IMG/VR virus record: IMGVR_UViG_3300035698_011578
Location: 1 to 64,000 of that record
Source: a virus
Strand: one strand, 5' to 3'
DNA length: 64,000 nucleotides
In this document: piece after piece, positions 1,322-53,186 of the stretch
Layout of the letters: each line of letters begins with the position of its first letter
Numbering within the stretch: position 1 is the first letter of the stretch
Program-made: the position numbers and the translations under genes
The notes under the pieces: generated by a model
Told to the model about the DNA's origin: nothing
The model's input: the letters and a program-made list of their open reading frames with translations, nothing else
The model's database searches: none

Positions 1322-2833
1322 TTATCTTTCCCATACCCATCTTTTCAAACCACATCCCCATATTCTATAATTACCTAGGTTATGCATTATCTCAGATTCT
1401 GTACTTCCTATTACACCGGGTATTTTTAACAATTCTTGTTTTCGATAATTAAATCTATGTTTCCTCGTTTTATCAATAACCCACCAATAATTTGGTGGTG
1501 TAACACCATTTAAATTAAAATTAAGCCTCTCATAGAGAACACCATTGAAAAAGGATATGTCACTATAAGATACTATATAATCATATTCATATTTTCTTAT
1601 AAAATATTTAAATAATTTAGAAGCACCACCAATAACATTAGTTCCCAATTTAGAACAAAACCTAACTAATTCCATAACTTTCCTTTTTTTGGAAAAAGTC
1701 ATTAGACTAACAAGTTCATCATTGTAATATAACCCTATTTTATATTTGGTGCTTGAATATCCTTGTATGTGATTTTTGTTTAAAAAGTCTTTAACCAATT
1801 TAACATTAGATATTTCTTTAATTTCACACTTCCTAGCATAAATTTTATTTGAAATTGATAAGACTTTATTCAAAATCATAGACTCAACTATATCTCTTTT
1901 GTCTCTCCAATCATCTTCCCAAACATGTAATAAATTAATACCTAACTCACTACACAATTTCGTCTTATTCAAATGATAATTTTTATCTTTGTGTATTTCA
2001 GAATGCCAATAAACACCATTGAATTCAATGGCTAAATTTAATTCTGGTAAAAAAATATCTAATGATAATGGTGGTATGATAGAATAACTATTTTGTATAA
2101 CTTTAATATTTAATCCTGATATAAAATCACGTAATTCTATCTCACCACTAGAAGTAGTTGTTTCAACTGGGTTACAATTAGTGCAAATTATATTATTATT
2201 CCTTAACCTATCGTTTAGTGTTCCTGCAAATATTTCGAAATTTGATTCACATACATCATGGTATATTGTGAAATTTCTATCATTTGAATAATCCATAACT
2301 TTATAATCACTGTCTAATTTTTTGGATATTTTAGATGGTAAATTATGTTCTTTAAATTTAATGTCGGATATTATCTTTTTAACCTTTTCAGATTTAGAAG
2401 CATTATCAACTCCCCATTTTTCGTAACATGTGTTTCTATATTTTTCTTTATACTCTTCTGTTTTTGAGTAATGATCAACATTATATCTTTCTAATAAAGT
2501 ATTTCTAAGTTTATCTTTTATAGACTTCACTTTCATTGGATTATCAACACCATGATTTTTCATAAAATTATTTCTAAACTTAATTTTATTACATGAAGCA
2601 CAATAATAATTCTCTGTTAAACCATTAGTGTATGAATAGTATTCTCTGAATTGTGATTTAGTTTCTAACCCACACTCATCACATTTATAATTAACAATAA
2701 ATGTTGACCCTGGAGTTAGATGGGTTGTCTCAACCTTTACACGTTCTCTTACTGAAATATCATAACCTAATTTTCTATAATATTTAACATTCCTAGAATG
2801 TCCAATTATATAGGTGTATTTATCTAATATCAT
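1322..2833 (-). CDS. Putative homing endonuclease (Zn fingers, GVDN repeats, PD-(D/E)xK/Vsr-like domain, Hef-like C-terminus)
   Basis: CxxC pairs, HGVDNP/WGVDN repeats, SSGE..LDIFLPELNLAIEFNGVYWH..VWEDDW, KIYARKC..NHIQG..ELVRFC. Confidence 0.75.
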   Translation of the reverse strand: MILDKYTYIIGHSRNVKYYRKLGYDISVRERVKVETTHLTPGSTFIVNYKCDECGLETKSQFREYYSYTNGLTENYYCASCNKIKFRNNFMKNHGVDNPMKVKSIKDKLRNTLLERYNVDHYSKTEEYKEKYRNTCYEKWGVDNASKSEKVKKIISDIKFKEHNLPSKISKKLDSDYKVMDYSNDRNFTIYHDVCESNFEIFAGTLNDRLRNNNIICTNCNPVETTTSSGEIELRDFISGLNIKVIQNSYSIIPPLSLDIFLPELNLAIEFNGVYWHSEIHKDKNYHLNKTKLCSELGINLLHVWEDDWRDKRDIVESMILNKVLSISNKIYARKCEIKEISNVKLVKDFLNKNHIQGYSSTKYKIGLYYNDELVSLMTFSKKRKVMELVRFCSKLGTNVIGGASKLFKYFIRKYEYDYIVSYSDISFFNGVLYERLNFNLNGVTPPNYWWVIDKTRKHRFNYRKQELLKIPGVIGSTESEIMHNLGNYRIWGCGLKRWVWER

Positions 2834-2884
2834 AATTTATATATTATATGATGCAATACCCCTTTGTTTAAATACCTTTGAATT

Positions 2885-3250
2885 TTATAAAGAGTGTAAA
2901 CCTTGTCCGTCATTAGAACCTTCAATAGATACAAGCTTTATTTCATTATCATTATCACCCTTCTTTTTATATAACTCGTTAAAACCCTTTGCTAAACCTC
3001 TTTTGAAAATCTCTGTGAAATAAGCAAATGCGTTTACTGATTTTTCCTCATTAAAGTTAAACCAATTTTGGTACATGTCTAATAGACCACTTTGATAACA
3101 ATCCATTTTATCATCATTGGACCAATATCTCATTTTTTTGATAGTTTTTTTACCAAGTAATTCAAGCATTTTCTCAGCTTTTCTTGTTAATTTACCTTGG
3201 GCTTTTGATACGATAATTTCTACATACAATTCTTTGTTGTTAAGATACAT
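2885..3250 (-). CDS. T4 gp55-like late-transcription sigma factor
   Basis: YLNNKELY ... NFNEEKSVNAFAYFTEI resembles gp55 motifs. Confidence 0.75.
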   Translation of the reverse strand: MYLNNKELYVEIIVSKAQGKLTRKAEKMLELLGKKTIKKMRYWSNDDKMDCYQSGLLDMYQNWFNFNEEKSVNAFAYFTEIFKRGLAKGFNELYKKKGDNDNEIKLVSIEGSNDGQGLHSL

Positions 3251-12290: not shown

Positions 12291-12595
12291 TCAGAAAGAG
12301 GATTAGACTTACCAAAGCCATCTTCTTTTTTATTAGAGGCATCATTTAATTTTTCAAGTTCTTCCTGTACTCTTTTAATCTCATCTTGAACTTTACTCAA
12401 CTCATCTTGTAGTTTCTTCTCTCTGGCTTCTTCATCTTTCAGCTCCTTTTCTTTCTCTTTTATAAAAGTTTCTAATTCATCAATGCGACCTTCTATAAAT
12501 TCTTTTGAGTTATGTCTTAAATTACTCTTTAGCCAATCATGAGGTAAATCTACTACAATTTCTTCATTGAATTTTCCCCAATTTTTAATCTCCAT
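12287..12595 (-). CDS. Coiled-coil hypothetical protein
   Basis: ORF, MEIKNWGKFNEE. Confidence 0.65.
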   Translation of the reverse strand: MEIKNWGKFNEEIVVDLPHDWLKSNLRHNSKEFIEGRIDELETFIKEKEKELKDEEAREKKLQDELSKVQDEIKRVQEELEKLNDASNKKEDGFGKSNPLSD

Positions 12596-29125: not shown

Positions 29126-29196
29126 AAGAAACCTTTCAAATCTGAAAGGTTTCTTTGTATATAATAAAAAAACCTTTCAGATTTTGAAAGGTTTTT
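29126..29196. terminator. Two back-to-back related terminator hairpins between convergent genes
   Basis: aagaaacctttca..tgaaaggtttctt and aaaaacctttca..tgaaaggttttt. Confidence 0.8.
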
Positions 29197-44056: not shown

Positions 44057-45109
44057 TCATAAAGATAAGGAATACACCTCTTCTTTATCTAATATTAGTT
44101 TGAAGTTATACCCGTTCTCTTTGTATGACTTAATTTTATCCAACATATTCTGTTCATCATAAGTCCAAGAACTTTTTATTTCGACTAACTCATTTGTGTC
44201 TACTAAATAAAAGTCTGGTATAGAAGTTCTTTCGGTTTTTATATTTGTGTCGAAATATTGTATTCTTAAACTTTCAACTTCATATTTTATTTTACCATCA
44301 TCTAACAACTTAGCATATTCTAATTCATAAGAACTTCTTAACCAATATTTTTTACCTTCCCAACTAACATGATAGCAAGATTTATATGGATATATCGGTG
44401 TGTCAGAGAATGATTGTCTTCCTTTTTTAATAGCCAATCTACCACTCTCACTATTGTTTCTAGTTTTTATGTTTAGTCGTTTAAATAACATATATACTGT
44501 CTGGTAGTTAATATTATATTTTTCTCCTATTTCAACCATTGAATCAGTTTTATATTCATTTTTCAATTTCATAACTATTCTATAATACTCATCATAAAAA
44601 TATATAGTACCAACTTTTGTTAAATTAAAGCCAAATTTAATGAAGCTTTTTGATCCACCTTTATACCAAAATTTACACATATCTGGGTAAATACATTCTT
44701 CTTGACCACATATTTTGCAAATTTTCTTTTGACATTTACAACATTTACTATTATTTATACTAGCATTTAATTTTATTTTCATATCAACTCCACACTTTTT
44801 ACATTTAGATTGTTTAAAACAATCTCTATTCACAAAACTTTGAGAGTATTTTGATGAACAACTTTTACAACAACATTTCCTATACTTATCTTTATTATAC
44901 ATATTCTCGCTAAGTCCTAATTCATATATTTTATTACAATATAAACATGTAATTTCATAAATTTTACAATTTAACTTTTTTGTTTCACTTCTTTTCTCTT
45001 TTATTTTTAGTTTTTTAGGATTCATATCACAATTTGTGAGATGTGCACCAAATTGTTGATGTTTTACATATTCAATTTCACTATTACAATGTTTACATGT
45101 TTTTTTCAT
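44057..45109 (-). CDS. Cys-rich protein with C-terminal PD-(D/E)xK (TnsA-like) endonuclease; probable homing endonuclease
   Basis: Many CxxC; RSSYE..YE..Y..PDF..VEIKS. Confidence 0.75.
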   Translation of the reverse strand: MKKTCKHCNSEIEYVKHQQFGAHLTNCDMNPKKLKIKEKRSETKKLNCKIYEITCLYCNKIYELGLSENMYNKDKYRKCCCKSCSSKYSQSFVNRDCFKQSKCKKCGVDMKIKLNASINNSKCCKCQKKICKICGQEECIYPDMCKFWYKGGSKSFIKFGFNLTKVGTIYFYDEYYRIVMKLKNEYKTDSMVEIGEKYNINYQTVYMLFKRLNIKTRNNSESGRLAIKKGRQSFSDTPIYPYKSCYHVSWEGKKYWLRSSYELEYAKLLDDGKIKYEVESLRIQYFDTNIKTERTSIPDFYLVDTNELVEIKSSWTYDEQNMLDKIKSYKENGYNFKLILDKEEVYSLSL

Positions 45110-45177
45110 ACTTTATATATTAAAATATCAAAGCGTTAAAATTGAAACGAACCAGTATTTTTCGTTTTAGTTTAGAG

Positions 45178-45248
45178 AGCAGGATACCTTAATCGAAAAG
45201 GCGACTCAATATTGGAAGTATCGTATGTTACCACTACACCAATCCTGC
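45178..45248 (-). tRNA. tRNA-Gly(TCC)
   Basis: GCAGGAT/ATCCTGC acceptor, CGATA-CT TCC AA-TATTG, TTCGATT loop. Confidence 0.9.
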
Positions 45249-45256
45249 ATTTTTTG

Positions 45257-45328
45257 AGCAGTAAGGGAATTATGATATCCCGACCTCGACCTTGGCAAGG
45301 TCGCACTCTTCCTCTGAGCTATTACTGC
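45257..45328 (-). tRNA. tRNA-Gly(GCC), atypical T-loop
   Basis: GCAGTAA/TTACTGC acceptor, CGACC-TT GCC AA-GGTCG, T-loop ATCATAA. Confidence 0.88.
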
Positions 45329-45342
45329 AATTTATTGTGTTA

Positions 45343-45370
45343 TGGCGCAGAGAGGAATCGAACCTCAACA
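45343..45370 (-). pseudogene. tRNA 3'-half remnant
   Basis: GAGG-TTCGATT-CCTC-T-CTGCGCCA with no matching 5' acceptor strand. Confidence 0.55.
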
Positions 45371-45414
45371 CACTCACATTTCTTAGTAGAGAAGTCAAAA
45401 AACGAACCCTCTAG

Positions 45415-45490
45415 TGGAAGCGATGGGAATCGAACCCACCAAACAATCTGGTTGCAAACCAAATTCGCCAGCCTTGGAACATGCGCCCCC
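45415..45490 (-). tRNA. tRNA-Cys(GCA)
   Basis: GGGGGCG/CGCTTCC acceptor, TTTGG-TT GCA A-CCAGA, GGTTCGATTCC. Confidence 0.85.
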
Positions 45491-45500
45491 GTTTTATTAG

Positions 45501-45577
45501 TTGGTGAAGAGGGACTCGAACCCTCATGTGACCAATTACCATTTCAACACGATATAAGCGTGAGTGGATATTCACCA
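45501..45577 (-). tRNA. Non-canonical D-armless tRNA-like gene, anticodon TAT (Ile)
   Basis: TGGTGAA/TTCACCA acceptor, 7-8 nt linker, CACG-CT TAT AT-CGTG, ~21-nt extra region, canonical T-arm. Confidence 0.6.
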
Positions 45578-45579
45578 AT

Positions 45580-45617
45580 AAAAAAAAGCAGTCACTTTTT
45601 GAAAGTGACTGCTTTTT
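45580..45617 (-). terminator. Attenuator terminator upstream of the Ile/Cys/Gly/Gly tRNA operon
   Basis: AAAAAGCAGTCACTTT-CAA-AAAGTGACTGC-TTTTTTTT ending 2 nt before the first tRNA. Confidence 0.85.
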
Positions 45618-45640
45618 AATTTTTTAATATTTCTGAGATA

Positions 45641-45721
45641 TTAAATAACATAATTCAGCCACCCGAAGTTCCCTCCTGCTATACCGTTGCCGTTTGCCGC
45701 TATGTTATTAATTGTTCTCAT
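45641..45721 (-). CDS. Gly-rich attenuator leader peptide MRTINNIAANGNGIAGGNFGWLNYVI
   Basis: 26 codons incl. GGC, GGT, GGA, GGG, GGG; GGGTGGCTG complementary to the terminator 5' arm. Confidence 0.78.
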   Translation of the reverse strand: MRTINNIAANGNGIAGGNFGWLNYVI

Positions 45722-45799
45722 TGTTATAATTTTTCTTTTTACTGTTGTTATATATTAAAGTTTTATTCTCTCTTTTGTTGTTTTTCGTATTATCTTATG

Positions 45800-45831
45800 C
45801 AAATATAAGGCAAAAGTTTTAATTATCCAAA
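45800..45831 (-). promoter_or_regulatory. Bacteroidota-type promoter for the Gly tRNA operon (late TAATATATA box also at ~45749-45758)
   Basis: TTTG 45828-31, 20-nt spacer, TATATTTG 45800-07. Confidence 0.7.
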
Positions 45832-46803
45832 TTTATTTACACTTTTCTTCATAATTTTAAAATAATCTGATATAGTTTTTTCATAACTTTCCCTCTCTTT
45901 GTAATTCTCAACAATATAATTGTAGTTGTCTTTCAATTCTAATACACCGTTAATAACATTATCTATCCTAATACTAGGAACATTTTTCAAGAAACACATC
46001 CTATTAAAATCATTAATCATCACACCATTACCATTAACCAATTCAGGTAATCCACCAGATGATGTGTATAGAATAGGTAACTTACATTTAACTGCTTGAC
46101 AAGTTACTTTAGAACCAGCATCTCTAAAAAATGGTGAGATGAATGCATCACACATACTAATAAGATTACACATCTCTGTCCTATCATCTATATAACCATA
46201 TTTGATTATATTTTCAGGTAGTTCTTCAATATCACACTCACCTATCAGATAAAATAAATCATTGTCAAATATTTTTGACATGGCTATAATAGTTGATAAA
46301 CGTTTACCCTCTCTCTCCCAATTACTACAAGAACTAATCCATTTAAACACCTGATTAGATTCCTTTTTATCCGGATTATAATCTTCAGAATTATTTAATA
46401 TGACAATATCATTATCATATTCTACATCATAAAGTTCTTTAAGTGTGTTCTTTGAATAATTTGATATAAATATAACAAAATCTGATTGATAACCGGCATC
46501 TATATGTAACTTATTTTTATAATCGAATTCTTTTCTCCAATAAATACCATCCATTCTTTTAACTTTGGGTATATTATTCAATTCAGACCACTCTAATACT
46601 TCTTTAGAATAAAATGTGTTTGTTATAATAATATCTGCTAATTTGTAATCAGATACACGATTAAACCCATAATTACCTGCATACCTACACAAGTCGTGCA
46701 TTATATCATTTTCTTTAGGCCCGAAAGATTTGACACTATGAAGTGTATTACTTACTCTATTATTTGAGCAATCATAATAATTTTTAAGCATTTCTCTTTT
46801 CAT
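45823..46803 (-). CDS. Glycosyltransferase family 4 (GT-B)
   Basis: RMDG, IFISNYSK, K R, CDAFI, GSKV..QA..C.LPIL...GGLPELV. Confidence 0.85.
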   Translation of the reverse strand: MKREMLKNYYDCSNNRVSNTLHSVKSFGPKENDIMHDLCRYAGNYGFNRVSDYKLADIIITNTFYSKEVLEWSELNNIPKVKRMDGIYWRKEFDYKNKLHIDAGYQSDFVIFISNYSKNTLKELYDVEYDNDIVILNNSEDYNPDKKESNQVFKWISSCSNWEREGKRLSTIIAMSKIFDNDLFYLIGECDIEELPENIIKYGYIDDRTEMCNLISMCDAFISPFFRDAGSKVTCQAVKCKLPILYTSSGGLPELVNGNGVMINDFNRMCFLKNVPSIRIDNVINGVLELKDNYNYIVENYKERESYEKTISDYFKIMKKSVNKFG

Positions 46804-47557
46804 TTACCCACCAATCTGTTTTAATTTTCAACATAGTATCATCATCTTCGAAGTGTAATATCCAACCTTCTTTATTCTCTACATCCTTCTTCAATTCCAA
46901 TATATCAGTTAATGAGTATGAATATTCATTAACAATTGGAACCTCATCTATATCTTTAATATCTAAGTACTTACCAGTTTTATTACATCTCAATTTAAGA
47001 AGAACCATATCCTCATAATCATACTCAACATATAATTTCTCACCTATTAATTCGAATATTGGTTGTTTATTTTGTAATAAGCAAGATTCTATAAATTTAT
47101 AATATTTAGGATTTTCTAAATATTTATTACCAGAAACATTTGTTTTAGTATAGAATCCCTTTTTTGTCTGTGATGTAATACTACCATCAGGTAACATGAT
47201 GAAAGTTAATAAGAAACCATCTAACTTTTCAGTTATATTTTTAATTGGTTTATCTATAAATTTATCCAGTACACAATGTTTATATTGATCTAATTCCCAG
47301 AATTTGCTTAACATTAAATTTCTACGAAATAAAGAACCATCATCATTAAATGTGAAGGATAGCCCTTTTAGTTCAAGTGCATTAATATTTGGTTTATCTA
47401 TAATAGGTAATTTGAAATTATTATAAGTGGCATGTCTATAACCGAATATAGATAAATCATAACTATTTATTATGAAATTACTTTCATAGAAATACATCTT
47501 AGGATTAGATTCAATTATTTCTAAACATTCTGTATATTCTGGTAGGTAAAAACTCAT
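46784..47557 (-). CDS. RNA ligase 1 (T4 Rnl1-like)
   Basis: ELKGL, KFW, EKLDG, FEL, EGW, LKIKTDWW. Confidence 0.8.
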   Translation of the reverse strand: MSFYLPEYTECLEIIESNPKMYFYESNFIINSYDLSIFGYRHATYNNFKLPIIDKPNINALELKGLSFTFNDDGSLFRRNLMLSKFWELDQYKHCVLDKFIDKPIKNITEKLDGFLLTFIMLPDGSITSQTKKGFYTKTNVSGNKYLENPKYYKFIESCLLQNKQPIFELIGEKLYVEYDYEDMVLLKLRCNKTGKYLDIKDIDEVPIVNEYSYSLTDILELKKDVENKEGWILHFEDDDTMLKIKTDWWVNEKRNA

Positions 47558-49505: not shown

Positions 49506-50131
49506 TAGACAAATTAGAAAATATTGGATTTTATACTCTATATAATGATAGAGCTAAAAATGTATCAGAATCATCACAGATGAAAAGATGCGAAATGATA
49601 ATTACTGAATACTGTAATTTTAATTGCCCGTATTGTCGTGGATTATCGGAAGAGGTTTACGGTGATCGCAAATTCAAACAATTATCATTAGATGAGATTA
49701 AGAAAAATATAGATTATTGGTGTGAGAATACCCCACTTGAGAATATAAGATTTTCTGGCGGTGAACCAACAATGCATAAAGATTTGAAAGAAATAGTAGA
49801 ATATGCAAAAGAAAGTGGTATAGAAAGAATAGCCGTATCAACAAATGGTTCTAAAGATTATGAGTTATATGATGAACTAATTGAAGCAGGTGTTAATGAT
49901 TTTTCAATATCATTAGATGCTTGTTGTGCCGAAGATGGTGATAAACTAGCTGGTGATAAAAAGGGCTCGTGGGAAATAGTAGTTGAAAATATTAGAAAAT
50001 TATCAAGTAGAACTTATGTTACTGTTGGTGTAGTATTATCACCTGAAAATGTAGATAAAACTTTAGAAACTATTAGATTTGCACACGACTTAGGTGTTTC
50101 TGATATAAGAATAATATCAGTGGCACAGTAA
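49502..50131 (+). CDS. Radical SAM protein, N-terminal part
   Basis: CNFNCPYC, FSGGEPT, STNG, ISLD; ends abruptly IRIISVAQ*. Confidence 0.88.
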   Translation: MIDKLENIGFYTLYNDRAKNVSESSQMKRCEMIITEYCNFNCPYCRGLSEEVYGDRKFKQLSLDEIKKNIDYWCENTPLENIRFSGGEPTMHKDLKEIVEYAKESGIERIAVSTNGSKDYELYDELIEAGVNDFSISLDACCAEDGDKLAGDKKGSWEIVVENIRKLSSRTYVTVGVVLSPENVDKTLETIRFAHDLGVSDIRIISVAQ

Positions 50132-52720: not shown

Positions 52721-52788
52721 AAGCACATAGGGGAATCGAACCCCCGTTTACTGAAAATCTGTCGTCCTAACCACTAGACGAATGCGCC
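52721..52788 (-). tRNA. tRNA-Glu(TTC), apparently damaged (about 4-nt deletion in the 3' anticodon stem)
   Basis: GGCGCAT/ATGTGCT, GTCTAGTGGTTAGGAC D-arm, ACAGA-TT TTC A-GT. Confidence 0.75.
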
Positions 52789-53114: not shown

Positions 53115-53186
53115 TAGCGGGGACAGGACTCGAACCTGCGACCTCCGGGTTATGAGCCCGACGAGCTGCCTCTGCTCTACCCCGCA
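53115..53186 (-). tRNA. Initiator tRNA-fMet(CAT)
   Basis: 1:72 mismatch, TCGGG-CT CAT AA-CCCGG (three G-C pairs); late TAATATATA box directly upstream. Confidence 0.92.

Follow-up and report, generated by a model that had tools for sequence, protein, structure and literature searches.

A candidate ribosome-mediated attenuator ahead of a phage tRNA operon

What is a short, glycine-rich open reading frame (ORF) with a terminator behind it doing in front of a viral tRNA operon? The question is raised by a locus on the IMG/VR virus record IMGVR_UViG_3300035698_011578, of which we analysed the first 64 kb (64,000 nucleotides, below called the window). The complete record has 95,476 bp, a G+C content of 28% and 25 tRNA genes called by ARAGORN. 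The locus occupies positions 45178-45831, all of its features lie on the minus strand, and its tRNA genes stand for Ile, Ala and Gly.

The leader probably acts as a ribosome-mediated attenuator of the trp/his type, which would read through into the tRNA genes when the matching aminoacyl-tRNAs are scarce. We put the probability of this reading, which the initial annotation of the locus had proposed, at roughly 80%. It is supported at sequence level by the match between leader codons and operon anticodons, by mutually exclusive RNA pairings, by a predicted stall window at codons 7-15 and by recurrence of the arrangement in paralogous loci, in a second phage contig and in metagenomic homologues. 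Translation of the leader, stalling and regulated read-through are what we infer from these features.

Leader codons, tRNA genes and promoters

The leader ORF (45641-45721; ATG at 45721, TAA at 45643-45641) is preceded by an A-rich 5′ leader and comprises 26 codons read on the minus strand. It begins with a scaffold, M-R-T-I-N-N-I-A, which is common to the leader of the Tyr operon on the same contig and to 25 further metagenomic homologues, and its control segment, IAANGNGIAGG, spans codons 7-17. Codons 7-20 read ATA GCG GCA AAC GGC AAC GGT ATA GCA GGA GGG AAC TTC GGG. They include the glycine codons that had been picked out earlier, namely GGC (codon 11), GGT (13), GGA (16) and GGG (17 and 20); under the codon usage of the genome, the probability of finding all four types among five glycine codons is 0.034. 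The alanine codons of the leader are GCG, GCA and GCA, and AAC at codons 10 and 12 is filler that no tRNA of the operon reads.

Ten of the 14 codons at positions 7-20 are readable by the four tRNAs of the operon, as compared with 11% of the coding sequence of the contig. Scored against its own tRNA set, the Gly leader reached a best-window value of 6.9 (−log10 P), a score that none of 3000 segments drawn at random from contig genes attained. With the tRNA sets of the other three operons it scored 0.4, 2.2 and 0.0.

The first gene of the operon is a tRNA-Ile(UAU)-like sequence (45501-45577) that matches the Rfam tRNA model at 29.8 bits, just above the cut-off. Its acceptor, anticodon and T arms are normal, the D arm is missing and a 22-nt extra region is found at the position of the variable arm. 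In the Rfam alignment only 4 nt correspond to the 15-position D arm, and an 18-nt insert follows the anticodon arm. ARAGORN did not call this gene, and at the D arm it departs from the canonical cloverleaf.

The second gene had been taken for a tRNA-Cys. Its anticodon loop, TTTGCAA, gives the anticodon UGC, and it carries the alanine identity elements G3:U70 and A73; the gene is a tRNA-Ala(UGC) (45414-45490; the ARAGORN call covers 45488-45414, and an Rfam match to the Ala-like tRNA domain of tmRNA starts at 45490). The sole DNA relatives of the gene in phage records overlap a tRNA-Ala. The earlier reservation that the leader has no Cys codon therefore falls away, because the gene is a tRNA-Ala(UGC) and the leader contains three GCR alanine codons.

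Next comes a remnant (45332-45413) with a T arm and the 3′ acceptor strand CTGCGCC, a matching 5′ half being absent; neither ARAGORN nor Rfam called a tRNA in it. The operon closes with tRNA-Gly(GCC) (45257-45328; Rfam 47.3 bits, loop UUGCCAA), which reads GGC and GGU, and tRNA-Gly(UCC) (45178-45248; ARAGORN and Rfam, 53.1 bits), which reads GGA and GGG. The two together decode all four glycine codons, as had been claimed. Apart from the supposed tRNA-Cys, the gene list of the initial annotation (the TAT-like gene, the remnant and both tRNA-Gly genes) stands.

The lack of a D arm is seen in three tRNA-like genes, located at 45501-45577 (-) in the window, at 67603-67680 (+) in the genome and at L015 3630-3722 (-). 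Their anticodons are UAU, GAU and GUA, and their acceptor, anticodon and T arms are normal. All carry an extra hairpin of 18-33 nt with a D-loop-like TGG or TTGG at the position of the variable arm, and this extra region is nearly the same in both Ile-like copies.

Upstream of the leader, the promoter that had been placed at 45800-45831 was recovered. It consists of a −33 element TTTG (45828-45831), read from the sequence and overlapping the final codons of a glycosyltransferase gene, a 20-nt spacer and the −7 element TATATTTG (TAnnTTTG; 45800-45807), a pair that we take to match the Bacteroidota housekeeping promoter consensus. On the contig there are 13 copies of the pattern TTTG-N19-21-TAnnTTTG; four belong to tRNA-operon leaders and one stands ahead of an initiator tRNA. 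The same −7 box precedes the Tyr, Asn and Asp leaders.

A second element, the TAATATATA box (45749-45757), is located 27 nt 5′ of the leader ATG. As 46 copies of it are present on the contig, about 31 of them 4-29 nt 5′ of an ORF of at least 60 amino acids, it is probably a phage-specific promoter motif; such promoters could possibly give very short 5′ leaders. Further copies are found, for example, at 45114-45122, 42356, 50138 and 54465 of the window. The Gly, Asn and Asp leaders each have a host-type as well as a phage-type promoter. A metagenome scan with a 29-nt promoter pattern found nothing, and 22 promoter-motif matches in viral contigs were all judged to be due to chance.

Exclusive pairings and predicted ribosome positions

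As had been described, the leader ORF is followed by a terminator at 45617-45580, a strong intrinsic one with a 16-bp stem (45617-45583) and eight T ending at 45580. In the nomenclature of classical attenuators, its 5′ arm is region 3 (45602-45617) and its 3′ arm is region 4 (45580-45598; arm 45598-45583, T run 45587-45580). Region 1 (45696-45709, AATAACATAGCGGC, codons 5-9) is the 5′ strand of a 1:2 hairpin seen in the fold of the ORF RNA. Region 2 (45644-45664) serves two partners: 45659-45644 pairs with region 1, and 45664-45656 (GGGTGGCTG) can pair with CAGTCACTT at 45611-45603 in region 3.

The minimum free energy (MFE) structure of the ORF RNA is the 1:2 hairpin, at −19.9 kcal/mol (z = −3.05; 2 of 200 shuffles were as good). 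The 2:3 antiterminator, GGGTGGCTG:CAGTCACTT, comprises 9 bp, 3 of them G-U, as previously noted, at −12.4 kcal/mol. Since bases 45659-45656 are common to 1:2 and 2:3, and bases 45611-45603 to 2:3 and 3:4, the three helices are mutually exclusive. Before the 3′ arm is made, the MFE fold is the one with 2:3 (−20.8 kcal/mol versus −19.9 with 1:2); in the full leader RNA it is 1:2 plus the terminator, at −40.1 kcal/mol (z = −6.3).

When about 24 terminator-like hairpins across the contig were compared, the 5′ arm had its strongest upstream complements in the Asn (−16.0 kcal/mol), Gly and Tyr (−11.1 kcal/mol) leaders. The others reached −8.7 kcal/mol or weaker, with the exception of a tandem pair at 29.15 kb, which ranks higher. 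This pair (29155-29194, both strands) consists of two near-identical tandem hairpins, AAACCTTTCA and TGAAAGGTTT, and constitutes a bidirectional double terminator.

The first tRNA-like gene begins at 45577. The gap behind the T run is 3 nt, too little for a promoter to fit between the terminator and this gene. Sub-threshold Rfam matches of the leader (Thr_leader 22.7 bits, L20_leader 23.1 bits and miRNA-like families) were rejected, as they merely reflect the hairpin.

The effect of ribosome position was approximated by masking bases A−18 to A+12 around the A-site codon and folding the transcript up to the 3′ arm, which is an equilibrium approximation of a kinetic process. With the A site at codons 1-15, the probability that the 5′ arm is sequestered was 0.62-0.65. 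At codon 16 it was down to 0.13, and at codons 17-19 to 0.04; over codons 16-24 it ranged from 0.04 to 0.16, and at the stop codon it stood at 0.27. The control codons predicted by this model are thus codons 7-15 (45677-45703), from ATA to GCA of the series given above, and stalls at ATA7, GCG8, GCA9, GGC11, GGT13, ATA14 and GCA15 would favour read-through.

In the mechanism that we propose, the Bacteroidota-type promoter, and probably the TAATATATA box as well, would initiate transcription, which would proceed via the leader and terminator to the tRNA genes. With aminoacyl-tRNAs plentiful, the lead ribosome would reach the stop codon and either cover region 2 or let 1:2 re-pair behind it; the 3:4 terminator would then form and the transcript would end. 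If one of the matching aminoacyl-tRNAs were scarce, the ribosome would stall within codons 7-15 and occupy region 1, leaving region 2 (GGGTGGCTG) to capture the terminator 5′ arm once it is made. With 2:3 formed there would be no terminator, and RNA polymerase would continue into the tRNA genes. The net result would be negative feedback that fits the supply of phage tRNAs to decoding demand, which might rise through a mismatch between phage and host codon usage or through loss or cleavage of host tRNAs during infection.

Recurrence of the layout

Three further operons of the contig have the same order of promoter, short ORF, terminator and tRNAs. A leader with YYYEE precedes Tyr, Glu-derived and Tyr tRNAs; a 36-codon leader (the Asn leader) precedes Asn, Leu, Arg, Val, Cys, Ile-like and Thr tRNAs; and a leader with QPQVDQDP precedes Asp, Gln and Pro tRNAs. 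For all four leaders of the contig (4/4), the own operon was the best-scoring tRNA set. In the Asn leader, codons 3-24 are all readable by tRNAs of its own operon except for the ATG at codon 8, which would require the CAU-anticodon tRNA-like gene at about 67945-68016. In the case of the Asp operon, the masking model still gives a switch.

The masking model placed the drop in sequestration directly behind the matching codons at 5 of 6 modelled loci, the Gly leader being the exception.

An initiator-like tRNA (53115-53186 (-)), recognised by a 1:72 mismatch and by three G-C pairs in its anticodon stem, has a −33/−7 promoter and TAATATATA box to itself and neither leader nor terminator; no other tRNA gene of the contig lacks a leader. 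This fits the attenuator model, because A-site stalling cannot sense an initiator tRNA.

Some of the tRNA-like genes in these operons are unusual in themselves. Between the two tRNA-Tyr genes, the sequence at 52721-52788 (-) has D and T arms typical of Glu and a UUC triplet, but the 3′ strand of its anticodon stem is absent and it is about 5 nt short (Rfam 45 bits, no ARAGORN call). When tRNA-Glu contigs of other organisms are aligned to it, insertions fall exactly at the missing strand. The type-II tRNA at 67847-67930 (+) of the genome combines a long variable arm with an anticodon loop of 6 nt, CTTTAA; ARAGORN lists it as 'tRNA-?(Lys|Stop)', and a UUA (ochre-reading) anticodon is one possible reading. 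The adjoining CAU-anticodon gene mentioned above is called by neither tool.

Homologues were collected in a metagenome scan whose query was the 23-nt start common to the Gly and Tyr leaders. It yielded 27 distinct leader-plus-terminator sequences, that is, 25 further homologues in addition to the two of the contig, and all 27 begin M-x-T-I-x-N-I-A. Leader content goes along with operon content: homologues with IIAIGKG or IIGGGAGA precede Ile(UAU), Gly(UCC) and Ala(UGC), those with YYYEGE precede Glu, Tyr, Gly and Ala, and one with QVQPQNNDADAPV precedes Val, Asp, Pro, Ala and Gln. A canonical tRNA-Ile(UAU) occupies the position of the D-armless gene in relatives, 18 nt past the terminator, and Gly codons are placed earlier in their leaders than here.

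According to the masking model, nearly all 27 homologues show a sharp drop of sequestration at codons 13-22; L156/L194 is a clear exception, with a partial drop only. Compensatory changes affect 6 of the 11 pairs of the terminator helix across the homologues. In a comparison of self with cross 2:3 pairing, a test that is confounded by arm length and supportive for most homologues, region 2 of the Gly leader preferred its own unusual 5′ arm over all 26 other arms; the pairing is GGCTGGG:CCCAGTC in the relatives and GGGTGGCTG:CAGTCACTT in the Gly leader. RNAalifold on the 27 homologues recovered the terminator only, the 1:2 and 2:3 helices being out of register between subfamilies. The leader was identical in X2, the best-matching of the run contigs, in a comparison with contigs of four runs, which therefore offered no population variation for tests of pairing.

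An unrelated 159-kb viral contig with 36 tRNAs, G001, came to light when one of the chance promoter-motif matches fell on it; a scan of viral contigs with an Asn-leader motif also found G001 only. All eight of its tRNA clusters stand behind a short ORF, seven of them with a canonical terminator, and at these seven loci 7-22 nt separate the terminator from the first tRNA. A QQQQ leader precedes three Gln tRNAs, an SSSRSS leader Ser, Arg and Ser, a leader with H, F and W precedes His, His, Trp and Phe, and an AAYEGAYGYEG leader precedes Tyr, Glu, Gly and Ala(UGC). Six of the eight leaders score best with their own operon.

G001 has one leader for Tyr/Glu/Gly/Ala where the IMG/VR contig has two, YYYEE (Tyr/Glu-like/Tyr) and IAANGNGIAGG (Ile/Ala/Gly/Gly). 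Because the order Glu, Gly, Gly occurs in G001, the remnant of the Gly operon may be a relic of a tRNA-Glu. The Lys leader of G001 (L015, about 12300-12400 (-)), with alternating K and Q codons, stands ahead of a 9-bp hairpin that lacks a T run, behind which lie two tRNA-Lys genes; this locus may represent a different, non-canonical read-out.

In Caulobacter phage phiCbK, at 49540-49769 (L143 2541-2770), the annotated 45-amino-acid 'hypothetical protein' gp083 has a high content of S, L, P and K. An annotated terminator separates it from two tRNA-Pro, two Lys, three Leu and two Ser genes, an arrangement that looks like the same layout in a cultivable phage.

Alternatives, known systems and neighbouring features

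A number of observations weigh against the attenuator reading or limit its reach. With regard to the codons, ATA7 and the first Ala codon (codon 8) belong to the conserved scaffold, and the Tyr leader has the same scaffold without Ile or Ala tRNAs behind it. The match is therefore in part not operon-specific. The earlier reservation that the later Gly codons lie too near the antiterminator was borne out by the masking model, in which GGA16 is borderline and GGG17 and GGG20 lie outside the productive window; the codons for tRNA-Gly(UCC) may for this reason escape sensing. The first gene of the operon is aberrant in lacking a D arm, and another of its elements is a remnant.

As far as the structures are concerned, the 2:3 duplex is short, and mononucleotide shuffles match its energy in 3% of cases (P = 0.03). 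The leader of the Asp operon is without a significant antiterminator, its best duplex (−7.5 kcal/mol) being like those of shuffles and ordinary terminators. For 4 of the 27 homologues (L207, L181, L199 and L165), self pairing was no better than cross pairing in the length-confounded test. Moreover, the proposed sensor is blind to the difference between a lack of tRNA and a lack of amino acid.

This last point leads to the alternative that survives best, although we consider it unlikely: a translation-coupled attenuator that reports general translation capacity, amino-acid starvation or the timing of infection, with the codon mirror as a by-product. Stalling would be the same for an uncharged and an absent tRNA, the combination of host-type and phage-type promoters at the Gly, Asn and Asp leaders suggests temporal control, and the filler codons AAC 10 and 12 fall within the control window. 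However, no general sensor needs leaders that match their own operons, on the contig (4/4) or in G001 (6/8), and the shift of leader content with operon content among the homologues would be equally needless.

Considerably less probable is that the small ORF and the terminator have nothing to do with tRNA control, the hairpin serving to end or insulate the glycosyltransferase transcript from upstream, the tRNAs arising by constitutive leak-through and the codons matching by compositional chance. The terminator does have an A tract too and scores on both strands, and 18 of 3000 draws gave Asn-rich or Asp-rich stretches of ordinary genes that score as high as the Asn and Asp leaders. On the other side, a promoter stands between the glycosyltransferase gene and the leader, and at the Asp operon the gene 5′ of the leader promoter ends in a separate terminator of its own. 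The random expectation for the Gly leader (0/3000) speaks against a chance match. Nor would this reading explain the geometry of the stall window, or why the design recurs in 12 operons of two phages and in 25 further homologues.

Slightly less probable again is that the peptide is a functional micro-protein and the hairpin an element of precursor processing or stability. The scaffold M-x-T-I-x-N-I-A is indeed kept at the peptide level, but its DNA doubles as region 1 of the hairpin, and beyond the scaffold the peptide changes freely along with the tRNA set. A 16-bp, GC-rich stem with eight U behind it also has the canonical make-up of an intrinsic terminator. Least probable of all is T-box-like direct sensing of uncharged tRNA without translation: the position before genes of the translation apparatus and the terminator/antiterminator pair would suit it, but neither a T-box or other riboswitch match nor a conserved T-box sequence is present (for the T-box, no match in the window at Rfam gathering thresholds, nor in 45100-45900 at E up to 10), and many different codons in one frame between ATG and stop take the place of a single specifier.

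The ribosome-mediated attenuator thus remains the preferred reading, and it has much in common with trpL, hisL, pheL and leuL, namely a promoter-proximal, codon-rich short ORF, exclusive 1:2, 2:3 and 3:4 pairings and an intrinsic terminator before the genes. As in these leaders, the control codons lie in or beside region 1, and several amino acids would be sensed at once, as in thrL and ilvL. It differs from them in that tRNAs rather than enzymes would be regulated and that the codons mirror the anticodons of the operon, for up to eight amino acids in sister leaders. It is also phage-borne, has a Bacteroidota-type promoter and shows no sequence similarity to them (for Thr_leader, the score given above compares with a cut-off of 55 bits).

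Leader-peptide attenuation is also found ahead of aminoacyl-tRNA synthetase genes, as in E. coli pheM-pheST. In bacilli, a His leader precedes hisS paralogues (PMC2965389). The principle would be shared, in that a ribosome stalled at cognate codons increases the expression of a component of aminoacyl-tRNA supply; in the synthetase leaders this is the charging enzyme for one amino acid, whereas in the phage leader it would be the tRNAs themselves, several at once. T-box riboswitches similarly exert terminator/antiterminator control in response to the state of a specific tRNA, but they bind uncharged tRNA through a specifier codon and a T-box sequence and have no ORF; the phage locus has neither of these binding features.

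In function, the nearest parallel is found in Anabaena PCC 7120, whose trn operon is a long, silent tRNA array induced by translational stress; control is exerted at the promoter, where direct repeats are bound by the ribbon-helix-helix (RHH) repressor TrcR (PMC8421152, PMC10272220). Neither attenuation nor a leader peptide or terminator is mentioned in the 2021 paper on this operon. As is proposed for the phage operon, this accessory tRNA array is off by default and on when translation is impaired, but the Anabaena switch sits at the promoter. In full-text literature searches, no description of tRNA genes under the control of a leader peptide came up.

Bacterial and phage tRNA genes are usually regarded as constitutive or controlled by growth rate. 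If the attenuator reading is true, an old mechanism would here underlie a new regulatory logic, in which tRNA transcription is subject to codon-by-codon feedback. Such feedback would explain how tRNA-rich phages escape over-making dozens of tRNAs and would give a handle on what phage tRNAs are for, as the leaders would state the codons that the phage monitors. We give an even chance to a broader proposal: that a multi-channel tRNA homeostat operates in large, tRNA-rich phages from several unrelated lineages, in which each operon of elongator tRNAs has a leader listing its codons and is transcribed on demand once these codons are decoded slowly. Depletion of particular tRNAs by host defences or by phage-induced shut-off would then be sensed as well, and the leaders would be the sensing arm of a counter-defence against tRNA-cleaving nucleases.

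The leaders are easy to recognise (a 23-nt pattern was enough to find 25 further homologues), so that the family should be chartable across metagenomes, and short 'hypothetical proteins' ahead of phage tRNA blocks could be re-annotated. The modular scaffold, with a fixed N-terminus and region 1 and swappable control codons, might also serve as a design for synthetic sensors of decoding speed.

As regards the surroundings of the locus, the record carries phage genes for a peptidoglycan amidase, GIY-YIG and HNH endonucleases, a T4 Rnl1-like RNA ligase and ribonucleotide reductase. The sequencing runs with its DNA are all labelled as salt-lake metagenomes, and there was no RNA run among those listed as containing the phage. 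The flanking glycosyltransferase has no relatives in viral contigs, and a 135-amino-acid plus-strand ORF (45212-45619), which overlaps the tRNAs, was taken as spurious.

The RNA ligase gene (46784-47557 (-); phrog_562, E = 3e-22) lies two genes 5′ of the leader. In T4, RNA ligase mends tRNA that has been cleaved by an anticodon nuclease, and the neighbourhood is suggestive as a context for tRNA surveillance.

Finally, ORFs resembling HNH or GIY-YIG homing endonucleases are inserted within tRNA operons at 66543-67231 and 75005-75691 (+) of the genome and at L015, about 2480-3100 (-). They separate the attenuator or the first tRNAs from the rest of the array. Those of the contig have their own ATATATA-type boxes, an exact TAATATATA at 66516 and CAATATATA 5′ of 75005.

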